Source of the DNA: Escherichia coli
GTDB lineage: Bacteria > Pseudomonadota > Gammaproteobacteria > Enterobacterales > Enterobacteriaceae
Reading direction: 5' to 3' (one strand)
NCBI RefSeq assembly: GCF_003334815.1
Contig: NZ_QOWO01000026.1
DNA length: 62,123 nt
The translations under genes were made by a program, and so were the position numbers. The notes under the pieces were generated by a model. The model had not been told where the DNA came from. It was given only the letters and a program-made list of their open reading frames with translations, and did not search any database. Of this stretch, positions 16,258 to 25,123 are shown one piece after another. Positions within the stretch are counted from its first letter, which is position 1; every line of letters starts with the position of its first letter.

Positions 16258-16432
16258 TGTAGGCCTGATAAGACGCGCCAGCGTCGCATCAGGCATCGGA
16301 GCACAACTGCCGGATTCGGCGTGAACGCCTTATCCGATCTACGGGCCTCGTCCCTGTTGTGATAAAGGCATCAAATCCCAGACATGATAAGACGCGCCAG
16401 CGTCGCATCAGGCGATAAATGCCTGATGCGAT
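16258..16432. repeat. REP/BIME cluster (repetitive extragenic palindromes)
   Basis: gcctgataagacgcgccagcgtcgcatcaggc, gccggattcggcgtgaacgccttatccg and gataagacgcgccagcgtcgcatcaggcg match REP consensus types. Confidence 0.8.
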
Positions 16433-20627: not shown

Positions 20628-22361
20628 GTGAAACAACAGATACAACTTCGTCGCCGTGAAGTCGATGAAACGGCAGACTTGCCCGCTGAATTGCCTCCCT
20701 TGCTGCGCCGTTTATACGCCAGCCGGGGAGTACGCAGTGCGCAAGAACTGGAACGCAGTGTTAAAGGTATGCTGCCCTGGCAGCAACTGAGCGGCGTCGA
20801 AAAGGCCGTTGAGATCCTTTACAACGCTTTTCGCGAAGGAACGCGGATTATTGTGGTCGGTGATTTCGACGCCGACGGCGCGACCAGCACGGCTCTAAGC
20901 GTGCTGGCGATGCGCTCGCTTGGTTGCAGCAATATCGACTACCTGGTACCAAACCGTTTCGAAGACGGTTACGGCTTAAGCCCGGAAGTGGTCGATCAGG
21001 CCCATGCCCGTGGCGCGCAGTTAATTGTCACGGTGGATAACGGTATTTCCTCCCATGCGGGGGTTGAGCACGCTCGCTCGTTGGGCATCCCGGTTATTGT
21101 TACCGATCACCATTTGCCAGGCGACACATTACCCGCAGCGGAAGCGATCATTAACCCTAACTTGCGCGACTGTAATTTCCCGTCGAAATCACTGGCAGGC
21201 GTGGGTGTGGCGTTTTATCTGATGCTGGCGCTGCGCACCTTTTTGCGCGATCAGGGCTGGTTTGATGAGCGTAACATCGCAATTCCTAACCTGGCAGAAC
21301 TGCTGGATCTGGTCGCGCTGGGGACAGTGGCGGACGTCGTGCCGCTGGACGCTAATAATCGCATTCTGACCTGGCAGGGGATGAGTCGCATCCGAGCCGG
21401 AAAGTGCCGTCCGGGGATTAAAGCGCTGCTTGAAGTGGCAAACCGTGATGCACAAAAACTCGCCGCCAGCGATTTAGGTTTTGCGCTGGGGCCACGTCTC
21501 AATGCTGCCGGACGACTGGACGATATGTCCGTCGGTGTGGCGCTGTTGTTGTGCGACAACATCGGCGAAGCGCGCGTGCTGGCAAATGAACTCGATGCGC
21601 TAAACCAGACGCGAAAAGAGATCGAACAAGGAATGCAAATTGAAGCCCTGACCCTGTGCGAGAAACTGGAGCGCAGCCGTGACACGCTACCCGGCGGGCT
21701 GGCAATGTATCACCCCGAATGGCATCAGGGCGTTGTCGGTATTCTGGCTTCGCGCATCAAAGAGCGTTTTCACCGTCCGGTTATCGCGTTTGCGCCAGCA
21801 GGTGACGGTACGCTGAAAGGTTCCGGTCGCTCCATTCAGGGGCTGCATATGCGTGATGCGCTGGAGCGATTAGACACACTCTACCCTGGCATGATGCTGA
21901 AGTTTGGCGGTCATGCGATGGCGGCGGGTTTGTCGCTGGAAGAGGATAAATTCAAACTCTTTCAACAACGGTTTGGCGAACTGGTTACTGAGTGGCTGGA
22001 CCCTTCGCTATTGCAAGGCGAAGTGGTATCAGACGGTCCGTTAAGCCCGGCCGAAATGACCATGGAAGTGGCGCAGCTGCTGCGCGATGCTGGCCCGTGG
22101 GGGCAGATGTTCCCGGAGCCGCTGTTTGACGGTCATTTCCGTCTGCTGCAACAGCGGCTGGTGGGCGAACGTCATTTGAAGGTGATGGTCGAACCGGTCG
22201 GCGGCGGTCCACTGCTGGATGGTATTGCTTTTAATGTCGATACCGCCCTCTGGCCGGATAACGGCGTGCGCGAAGTGCAACTGGCTTATAAGCTCGATAT
22301 CAACGAGTTTCGCGGCAACCGCAGCCTGCAAATTATCATCGACAATATCTGGCCAATTTAG
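20628..22361 (+). CDS. recJ: Single-stranded-DNA-specific exonuclease RecJ
   Basis: 577-aa ORF with GTG start; DHH motifs (VVGDFDADG, DHH). Confidence 0.96.
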   Translation: MKQQIQLRRREVDETADLPAELPPLLRRLYASRGVRSAQELERSVKGMLPWQQLSGVEKAVEILYNAFREGTRIIVVGDFDADGATSTALSVLAMRSLGCSNIDYLVPNRFEDGYGLSPEVVDQAHARGAQLIVTVDNGISSHAGVEHARSLGIPVIVTDHHLPGDTLPAAEAIINPNLRDCNFPSKSLAGVGVAFYLMLALRTFLRDQGWFDERNIAIPNLAELLDLVALGTVADVVPLDANNRILTWQGMSRIRAGKCRPGIKALLEVANRDAQKLAASDLGFALGPRLNAAGRLDDMSVGVALLLCDNIGEARVLANELDALNQTRKEIEQGMQIEALTLCEKLERSRDTLPGGLAMYHPEWHQGVVGILASRIKERFHRPVIAFAPAGDGTLKGSGRSIQGLHMRDALERLDTLYPGMMLKFGGHAMAAGLSLEEDKFKLFQQRFGELVTEWLDPSLLQGEVVSDGPLSPAEMTMEVAQLLRDAGPWGQMFPEPLFDGHFRLLQQRLVGERHLKVMVEPVGGGPLLDGIAFNVDTALWPDNGVREVQLAYKLDINEFRGNRSLQIIIDNIWPI

Positions 22362-22451
22362 CGTCATCTTCTCTATAAAAAAGAGCGTGGATTGGGTACA
22401 ATCCCGCTCTTATCACCGCATTTTGACTAGCTCAATAAAAGAAATCAGACC

Positions 22452-23550
22452 ATGTTTGAAATTAATCCGGTAAATAATCGCATTCAGGACCTCACGGAAC
22501 GCTCCGACGTTCTTAGGGGGTATCTTTGACTACGACGCCAAGAAAGAGCGTCTGGAAGAAGTAAACGCCGAGCTGGAACAGCCGGATGTCTGGAACGAAC
22601 CCGAACGCGCACAGGCGCTGGGTAAAGAGCGTTCCTCCCTCGAAGCCGTTGTCGACACCCTCGACCAAATGAAACAGGGGCTGGAAGATGTTTCTGGTCT
22701 GCTGGAACTGGCTGTAGAAGCTGACGACGAAGAAACCTTTAACGAAGCCGTTGCTGAACTCGACGCCCTGGAAGAAAAACTGGCGCAGCTTGAGTTCCGC
22801 CGTATGTTCTCTGGCGAATATGACAGCGCCGACTGCTACCTCGATATTCAGGCGGGGTCTGGCGGTACGGAAGCACAGGACTGGGCGAGCATGCTTGAGC
22901 GTATGTATCTGCGCTGGGCAGAATCGCGTGGTTTCAAAACTGAAATCATCGAAGAGTCGGAAGGTGAAGTGGCGGGTATTAAATCCGTGACGATCAAAAT
23001 CTCCGGCGATTACGCTTACGGCTGGCTGCGTACAGAAACCGGCGTTCACCGCCTGGTGCGTAAAAGCCCGTTTGACTCCGGCGGTCGTCGCCACACGTCG
23101 TTCAGCTCCGCGTTTGTTTATCCGGAAGTTGATGATGATATTGATATCGAAATCAACCCGGCGGATCTGCGCATTGACGTTTATCGCGCGTCCGGCGCGG
23201 GCGGTCAGCACGTTAACCGTACCGAATCTGCGGTGCGTATTACCCACATCCCGACCGGGATCGTGACCCAGTGCCAGAACGACCGTTCCCAGCACAAGAA
23301 CAAAGATCAGGCCATGAAGCAGATGAAAGCGAAGCTTTATGAACTGGAGATGCAGAAGAAAAATGCCGAGAAACAGGCGATGGAAGATAACAAATCCGAC
23401 ATCGGCTGGGGCAGCCAGATTCGTTCTTATGTCCTTGATGACTCCCGCATTAAAGATCTGCGCACCGGGGTAGAAACCCGCAACACGCAGGCCGTGCTGG
23501 ACGGCAGCCTGGATCAATTTATCGAAGCAAGTTTGAAAGCAGGGTTATGA
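22452..23550 (+). CDS. prfB: Peptide chain release factor 2, translated with a programmed +1 frameshift at 22524-22530
   Basis: Frame-0 ATG at 22452 encodes [25 protein letters not shown] and hits in-frame TGA at 22527-22529; the +1 frame continues from GAC (22528) to the stop at 23550 and includes the GGQ motif; 365 aa total. Confidence 0.93.
22515..22530 (+). promoter_or_regulatory. prfB: prfB autoregulatory frameshift site (internal Shine-Dalgarno + CUU UGA C)
   Basis: AGGGGG tat CTT TGA C; classic RF2 frameshift cassette. Confidence 0.9.
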
Positions 23551-23559
23551 GGAACCAAC

Positions 23560-25077
23560 ATGTCTGAACAACACGCACAGGGCGCTGACGCGGTAGTCGA
23601 TCTTAACAATGAACTGAAAACGCGTCGTGAGAAGCTGGCGAACCTGCGCGAGCAGGGGATTGCCTTCCCGAACGATTTCCGTCGCGATCATACCTCTGAC
23701 CAATTGCACGCAGAATTCGACGGCAAAGAGAACGAAGAACTGGAAGCGCTGAACATCGAAGTCGCCGTTGCTGGCCGCATGATGACCCGTCGTATTATGG
23801 GTAAAGCGTCTTTCGTTACCCTGCAGGACGTTGGCGGTCGCATTCAGCTGTACGTTGCCCGTGACGATCTCCCGGAAGGCGTTTATAACGAGCAGTTCAA
23901 AAAATGGGACCTCGGCGACATCCTCGGCGCGAAAGGTAAGCTGTTCAAAACCAAAACCGGCGAACTGTCTATCCACTGCACCGAGTTGCGTCTGCTGACC
24001 AAAGCACTGCGTCCGCTGCCGGATAAATTCCACGGCTTGCAGGATCAGGAAGCGCGCTATCGTCAGCGTTATCTCGATCTCATCTCCAACGATGAATCCC
24101 GCAACACCTTTAAAGTGCGCTCGCAGATCCTCTCTGGTATTCGCCAGTTCATGGTGAACCGCGGCTTTATGGAAGTTGAAACGCCGATGATGCAGGTGAT
24201 CCCTGGCGGTGCCGCTGCGCGTCCGTTTATCACCCACCATAACGCGCTGGATCTCGACATGTACCTGCGTATCGCGCCGGAACTGTACCTCAAGCGTCTG
24301 GTGGTTGGTGGCTTCGAGCGTGTATTCGAAATCAACCGTAACTTCCGTAACGAAGGTATTTCCGTACGTCATAACCCAGAGTTCACCATGATGGAACTCT
24401 ACATGGCTTACGCAGATTACAAAGATCTGATCGAGCTGACCGAATCGCTGTTCCGTACTCTGGCACAGGATATTCTCGGTAAGACGGAAGTGACCTACGG
24501 CGACGTGACGCTGGACTTCGGTAAACCGTTCGAAAAACTGACCATGCGTGAAGCGATCAAGAAATATCGCCCGGAAACCGACATGGCGGATCTGGACAAC
24601 TTCGACTCTGCGAAAGCAATTGCTGAATCTATCGGCATCCACGTTGAGAAGAGCTGGGGTCTGGGCCGTATCGTTACCGAGATCTTCGAAGAAGTGGCAG
24701 AAGCACATCTGATTCAGCCGACCTTCATTACTGAATATCCGGCAGAAGTTTCTCCGCTGGCGCGTCGTAACGACGTTAACCCGGAAATCACAGACCGCTT
24801 TGAGTTCTTCATTGGTGGTCGTGAAATCGGTAACGGCTTTAGCGAGCTGAATGACGCGGAAGATCAGGCGCAACGCTTCCTGGATCAGGTTGCCGCGAAA
24901 GACGCAGGTGACGACGAAGCGATGTTCTACGATGAAGATTACGTCACCGCACTGGAACATGGCTTACCGCCGACAGCAGGTCTGGGAATTGGTATCGACC
25001 GTATGGTAATGCTGTTCACCAACAGCCATACCATCCGCGACGTTATTCTGTTCCCGGCGATGCGTCCGGTAAAATAA
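23560..25077 (+). CDS. lysS: Lysyl-tRNA synthetase (constitutive)
   Basis: 505-aa [29 protein letters not shown]...; class II aaRS motifs; 9 nt after prfB. Confidence 0.97.
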
Positions 25078-25096
25078 GCATTACGTTATGCTCACA

Positions 25097-25123
25097 ACCC
25101 CGGCAAATGTCGGGGTTTTTTTA
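25097..25123 (+). terminator. Rho-independent terminator after lysS
   Basis: ccccggcaaatgtcgggg hairpin followed by 7 T. Confidence 0.7.

Follow-up and report, generated by a model that had tools for sequence, protein, structure and literature searches.

The prfB locus and its gene neighbourhood

The window, i.e. the whole stretch of 62,123 nucleotides of Escherichia coli DNA that was analysed, encodes release factor 2 (RF2) in the prfB gene at 22452-23550, which lies between recJ and lysS on the plus strand. The upstream neighbour recJ (20628..22361, plus strand) scores 1192 bits on the RecJ model NF008290, and lysS (23560..25077, plus strand), which begins 9 bases past the prfB stop, reaches 1110 bits on the lysine--tRNA ligase model NF009101. 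Both assignments are also found in the RefSeq annotation, and the annotated gene order in the RefSeq relative is xerD-dsbC-recJ-prfB-lysS-idi. On identical DNA, RefSeq describes prfB as a CDS joined from two parts and remarks on a "programmed frameshift"; this CDS corresponds to 22452-23550 of the window. An alignment to annotated prfB had been proposed as a check in the preliminary description of this DNA, and the annotation of the identical DNA bears its reading out. A scan for promoters and terminators between 22200 and 25300 yielded no more than is expected from shuffled sequence; a terminator-like hairpin 3' of lysS (25096-25117) is the one plausible site.

Apart from the protein-coding genes, four RNA features could be identified in the window by Rfam and ARAGORN. 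These are a full-length 6S RNA (ssrS, 2568-2751, minus strand; RF00013, 139.8 bits), a SIB RNA, which is a type I antitoxin sRNA of a Sib/Ibs pair (1769-1919, minus strand; RF00113, 133.8 bits), the nucleoid-associated non-coding RNA 4 (naRNA4, 16262-16339, minus strand; RF02564, 75 bits) and a tRNA-Gly with the anticodon CCC (59677-59750, plus strand, ARAGORN; 59677-59747 with the Rfam tRNA model). The 3' end of the 16S rRNA and tRNA-Leu(GAG) are encoded outside the window. As the DNA stems from E. coli, a matching anti-Shine-Dalgarno sequence and a tRNA-Leu that reads CUU are expected in the host.

Reading frames and the frameshift motif

The initiating ATG of prfB is located at 22452-22454. 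The frame-0 ORF that starts there (22452..22529) consists of 25 sense codons followed by TGA, and its sense part (ORF0, 22452..22526, plus strand) represents RF2 codons 1-25. In the +1 frame a TAA is found at 22471-22473, and from 22474 onwards this frame is open until the TGA at 23548-23550. RF2 codons 26-365 and the terminal TGA are encoded in this frame by 22528..23550 (plus strand). The preliminary description had stated that frame 0 from the ATG at 22452 ends at a UGA after 25 codons, that AGGGGG precedes this stop, and that the long RF2 frame continues in +1. All of this agrees with the sequence in every coordinate. It had also explained by the frameshift why prfB begins in the list of open reading frames only with the ATG at 22669 (22669..23550, 293 aa), and this explanation holds as well, because ATG, GTG and TTG are absent earlier in that frame.

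The motif AGGGGG-TAT-CTT-TGA-C occupies positions 22515-22530 and contains the frame-0 stop. It starts with the internal Shine-Dalgarno-like purine run AGGGGG (22515..22520, plus strand), which covers the codons Arg22-Gly23 and is separated from the CTT codon by 3 nt and from the stop by 6 nt. This arrangement is in agreement with the published consensus of AGGGGG, CTTT, TGA and C, in which the stop is never TAG (PMC12421855). The spacer codon TAT (Tyr24, 22521..22523, plus strand) is the E-site codon when CUU occupies the P site. The slippery CUU U (22524..22527, plus strand), for which slippage is known from the literature, comprises the CTT of Leu25 (22524-22526) and stands directly before the stop, with which it overlaps by its last base. 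The stop itself is an in-frame UGA (22527..22529, plus strand) at codon 26 of frame 0, that is an RF2-specific stop, whose role as a sensor of the RF2 level is again taken from the literature. It is followed by a C at 22530 (plus strand), the third base of the +1 codon GAC (Asp26), and the resulting UGA-C has been described as a context of weak termination.

The 16-mer occurs only once in the window even if up to two mismatches are allowed, while 0.00 occurrences are expected from 100 shuffles. The heptamer CTTTGAC by itself is not enriched (11 found versus 7.7 expected), and among its copies in the window only the one in prfB has a G5 run at the correct spacing. One of the 11 chance heptamers (1898-1904, minus strand) falls within the SIB RNA.

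The joined product

Joining of the frame-0 codons 1-25 with the +1 frame from GAC at 22528 results in a protein of 365 aa, residues 1-365 of which align to residues 1-365 of the solved E. coli RF2 chains 1gqe and 1ml5 as well as of many ribosome complexes. The junction ...LRGYL|DYDAKK... is included in this alignment; the homology runs across it without a break and the remainder of RF2 follows contiguously in the +1 frame. On the NCBIfam model TIGR00020 (prfB) the joined product scores 525.9 bits, for which the cut-off is 370 bits, and on the RF1 models it stays below their cut-offs. The TIGR00020 score and the alignment over the full length of the solved chains identify the joined product as class-I release factor 2.

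In comparison with K-12 BW25113 the window shows a single difference in 1181 bases, which is an exchange of G to A at 23188 and which is seen as the same substitution in the PDB alignment. RF2 codon 246 (23188..23190, plus strand) is accordingly GCG (Ala) in the window and ACG (Thr) in K-12 BW25113. Ala246 is the canonical and more active form of RF2, while Thr246 is a peculiarity of K-12 with reduced activity (PMC5373646). The window therefore originates from a non-K-12 lineage of E. coli or from a strain with a B-type prfB.

The list of open reading frames contains precisely a 25-codon ORF and a 293-codon ORF, which would be expected if the locus comprised two independent genes, one for a leader peptide of 25 codons and one for an N-terminally truncated RF2 starting at the internal ATG 22669 (293 aa). 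However, the start-less +1 stretch 22528-22668 between them encodes RF2 residues 26-72, which are present in the solved structures, and the frame-0 residues 1-25 are part of solved RF2 too. The residues from 26 onwards are moreover conserved in other species, where the alignments begin at residue 26, and the published ribosome occupancy of the second relative to the first ORF is consistent with frameshifting (PMC5373646). An organization as two genes is thus highly improbable. The correct CDS of prfB is join(22452..22526, 22528..23550) and not a 25-codon ORF plus a 293-codon ORF from 22669.

Conservation within E. coli

The region of 1181 bases around prfB (22380-23560) is 100% identical in many complete E. 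coli chromosomes, and each of the 5426 complete E. coli genomes contains exactly one copy of it. In one of these genomes the sole copy is located on a record labelled as plasmid; a wrong replicon label or a fragment of the chromosome is the probable explanation. The 32-base core of the site (22501-22532) is identical to that of the window in 5417 of the 5426 genomes and differs by one base in the other nine. The variants which were inspected over 56 bases leave the 16-base motif untouched (TAC is replaced by TAT at 22533, and GCC by ACC in the codon that starts at 22537), with the exception of a shortening of the G5 run to G4.

This G4 allele is found in three of the 5426 genomes, namely in BH100 substr. 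MG2014, O145 RM8995-C1 and 51008369SK1 (records NZ_CP024650.2, L126:1258-2355; NZ_CP031355.1, L127:102-331; NZ_CP029973.1, 3865823-3865853). The count was obtained with a 31-base query, as the TAC/TAT polymorphism at 22533 interferes with a 46-base query from BH100, and the nine non-identical cores accordingly divide into three with G4 and six with some other single difference. The loss of one G leads to AGGGG and places prfB in a single frame with the product ...LRGIFDYD..., which is annotated without a frameshift as WP_105166511.1. Most likely these alleles are due to a miscalled homopolymer, although a real mutation is also possible. That they represent genuine natural losses of RF2 autoregulation in three unrelated E. 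coli genomes, and not homopolymer errors, is unlikely; if it were true, E. coli would offer a natural case of recurrent frameshift loss. For the window the G4 alleles are without bearing, since its version of the site is the norm.

The lowest whole-gene match in E. coli, with 96.6% identity, is the prfB of NIPH17_0036 (NZ_AP024561.1, L002:1573-2642), which carries the annotation of an incomplete pseudogene with an internal stop ('PCRF domain-containing protein'). It was considered as a candidate for a genome without the frameshift site and could be ruled out, as the motif is intact. The damage consists of a scrambled or deleted stretch in the +1 ORF, equivalent to 22792-22854 of the window, and the match is 26 bases shorter. 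Because prfB is essential, this damage looks like an artefact of the assembly.

The motif in other bacteria

We also looked for the motif in other species, using one genome per species (298 Gb) and the pattern AGGGGGNNTCTTTGAC, in which 14 bases are specified. At least 120 loci were found. In 106 of the 120 matches listed, the +1 ORF beginning with GAC is a homologue of RF2 according to BLASTP, and in 104 of these 106 the alignment opens with RF2 residue 26 opposite the first residue of the ORF. These 106 +1 ORFs are between 26 and 99.7% identical to RF2 (median 63%). An upstream ATG, taken for each locus as the most upstream one 18-30 codons before the stop, is located among the matches listed 24-25 codons before the stop in 72 loci and 18-29 codons before it in 103. 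The spacer codon of the 106 prfB loci among the matches listed is TAT in 62, TCT in 27, TTT in 8 and CAT in 6 cases.

The third codon positions flanking the motif are close to random in the prfB loci among the matches listed, with an information content of 0.01-0.2 bits. These sequences are therefore saturated at silent sites and nevertheless have the motif in common. Within E. coli and in the cross-species set, which was seeded with the motif, the site is thus conserved against a synonymous background and is not a private mutation. The motif-seeded scan shows that the motif occurs at a fixed prfB codon in many phyla, whereas the frequency of prfB genes without it has to be taken from the literature: the frameshift is reported for 64% of 12,753 genomes, and about a third of the species do not have the motif (PMC12421855).

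No RF2 match was obtained for 14 of the 120 matches listed. Four of these are cut by the end of a contig, and the other ten include an archaeal contig (Nitrosarchaeum sp. BD3, L060:1265-1280) besides about nine further loci (L006, L013, L016, L038, L053, L063, L077, L107 and L120). About 10 of the 120 listed matches hence look like chance occurrences of a pattern with 14 specified bases.

Sequencing error and readthrough

The in-frame records described above, 3 of 5426 complete genomes (G4, WP_105166511.1), demonstrate that prfB can be deposited without an internal stop, and the stop at 22527 could in principle stem from an error in sequencing or assembly, or from a mutation that turned an otherwise in-frame gene into a pseudogene. 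The preliminary description had itself named an in-frame version without the stop as the observation that would point to such an error. However, the stop-bearing core of the window is the one shared by 5417 of the 5426 genomes, and the in-frame version is confined to these three. The motif stands at the same prfB codon in the 106 loci from many phyla among the matches listed, and over the junction the encoded protein agrees with RF2 as solved by experiment, from which the in-frame product ...LRGIFDYD... differs at residues 24-25. Because of the match to solved RF2, the motif shared across species and the identity in 5417 of 5426 genomes, the stop is neither a sequencing error nor the mark of a pseudogene, and we assign practically no probability to this explanation.

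Passage of the UGA by readthrough or recoding with an unchanged frame, i.e. by a near-cognate Trp or Cys or by selenocysteine, would be in line with the leaky UGA-C context and with the use of UGA as selenocysteine codon, but its probability is close to nil, since frame 0 continues past the UGA for only 31 codons unlike RF2 until the TAA at 22623-22625, the RF2 sequence goes on in the +1 frame only, and at the gathering thresholds Rfam, run over the whole window, places no RNA family, SECIS included, at the prfB site. While readthrough is rejected as a route to RF2 on account of these 31 unrelated codons, minor and non-functional readthrough products may still be formed.

Mechanism and autoregulation

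The site is thus almost certainly the programmed +1 ribosomal frameshift of E. coli prfB, by which the product RF2 represses its own synthesis, and none of the data speak against this reading. The analysis itself shows how the site is built, what the joined product is and that the site is conserved in E. coli and across bacteria, while the slippage, the pairing of the Shine-Dalgarno-like run with the anti-Shine-Dalgarno sequence and the feedback are adopted from the literature. The competition of RF2-limited termination with slippage of tRNA-Leu, stimulated by an internal Shine-Dalgarno sequence, is the established mechanism, and the SD-like AGGGGG is described to stimulate frameshifting by pairing with the anti-SD (PMC12421855). 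Both frameshifting and its autoregulation, by which the efficiency falls as RF2 rises, have been demonstrated in experiments with the K-12 and B alleles, which are essentially the same as the allele of the window (PMC12421855, PMC5373646).

Applied to the window, ribosomes would start at the ATG at 22452 and arrive after 25 codons at the UGA 22527-22529 in its weak UGA-C context. With plentiful RF2, termination would take place at this UGA and a peptide of 25 residues would be released. If RF2 is scarce, the ribosome is supposed to pause. The AGGGGG, three bases 5' of the P-site codon, could then pair with the 3' end of the 16S rRNA, and the P-site tRNA-Leu would slip from CUU to UUU. GAC at 22528-22530 would be decoded as codon 26, and translation in the +1 frame would yield the RF2 of 365 residues, which in this way would repress its own synthesis. 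The RNA fold of 22500-22600 does not stand out from that of shuffled sequences (z = -1.69), 14 of 200 of which fold equally well or better, and the lack of a significant local fold fits a mechanism in which no downstream structure is required.

The mechanism of the prfB frameshift has been textbook knowledge since 1986. The site in the window is therefore already known and is a textbook case in a non-K-12 E. coli; its practical relevance is restricted to the annotation, and biology gains nothing from it. It can serve as a positive control, as it indicates that recoding signals are recognisable from the raw sequence by a first-stage reader. How the frameshift is distributed over more than 12,000 genomes has been in print since 2025 (PMC12421855).

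Comparison with known systems

The closest known system is the prfB of E. coli K-12, for which Craigen and Caskey reportedly described the +1 programmed ribosomal frameshift in 1986; a review of it is given in PMC12421855. It has the same frameshift cassette, the same recJ-prfB-lysS order and the same UGA at codon 26, and differs from the window in Thr246 (ACG) instead of Ala246 (GCG). The published frameshifting is slightly lower with Ala246, the allele of the window: ribosome profiling of endogenous prfB revealed about 21% frameshifting with this allele and about 28% in K-12 (PMC5373646).

The prfB frameshift sites of other bacteria (among them Bacillota, Bacteroidota and other Pseudomonadota) have the same AGGGGG-NNT-CTT-TGA-C, 20-29 codons into the gene, with RF2 in the +1 frame from GAC. 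They differ in the spacer codon, which varies between TAT, TCT, TTT and CAT, and in the length of ORF0, which is mostly 24-25 codons. An internal SD-like stimulator is also common to prfB and the -1 programmed frameshifts of dnaX and of IS elements. In contrast to prfB, the latter shift into the -1 frame on tandem slippery heptamers and have a downstream structure and a longer SD spacing, while prfB shifts by +1 at a stop codon with an SD spacing of 3 nt and does not require a structure.
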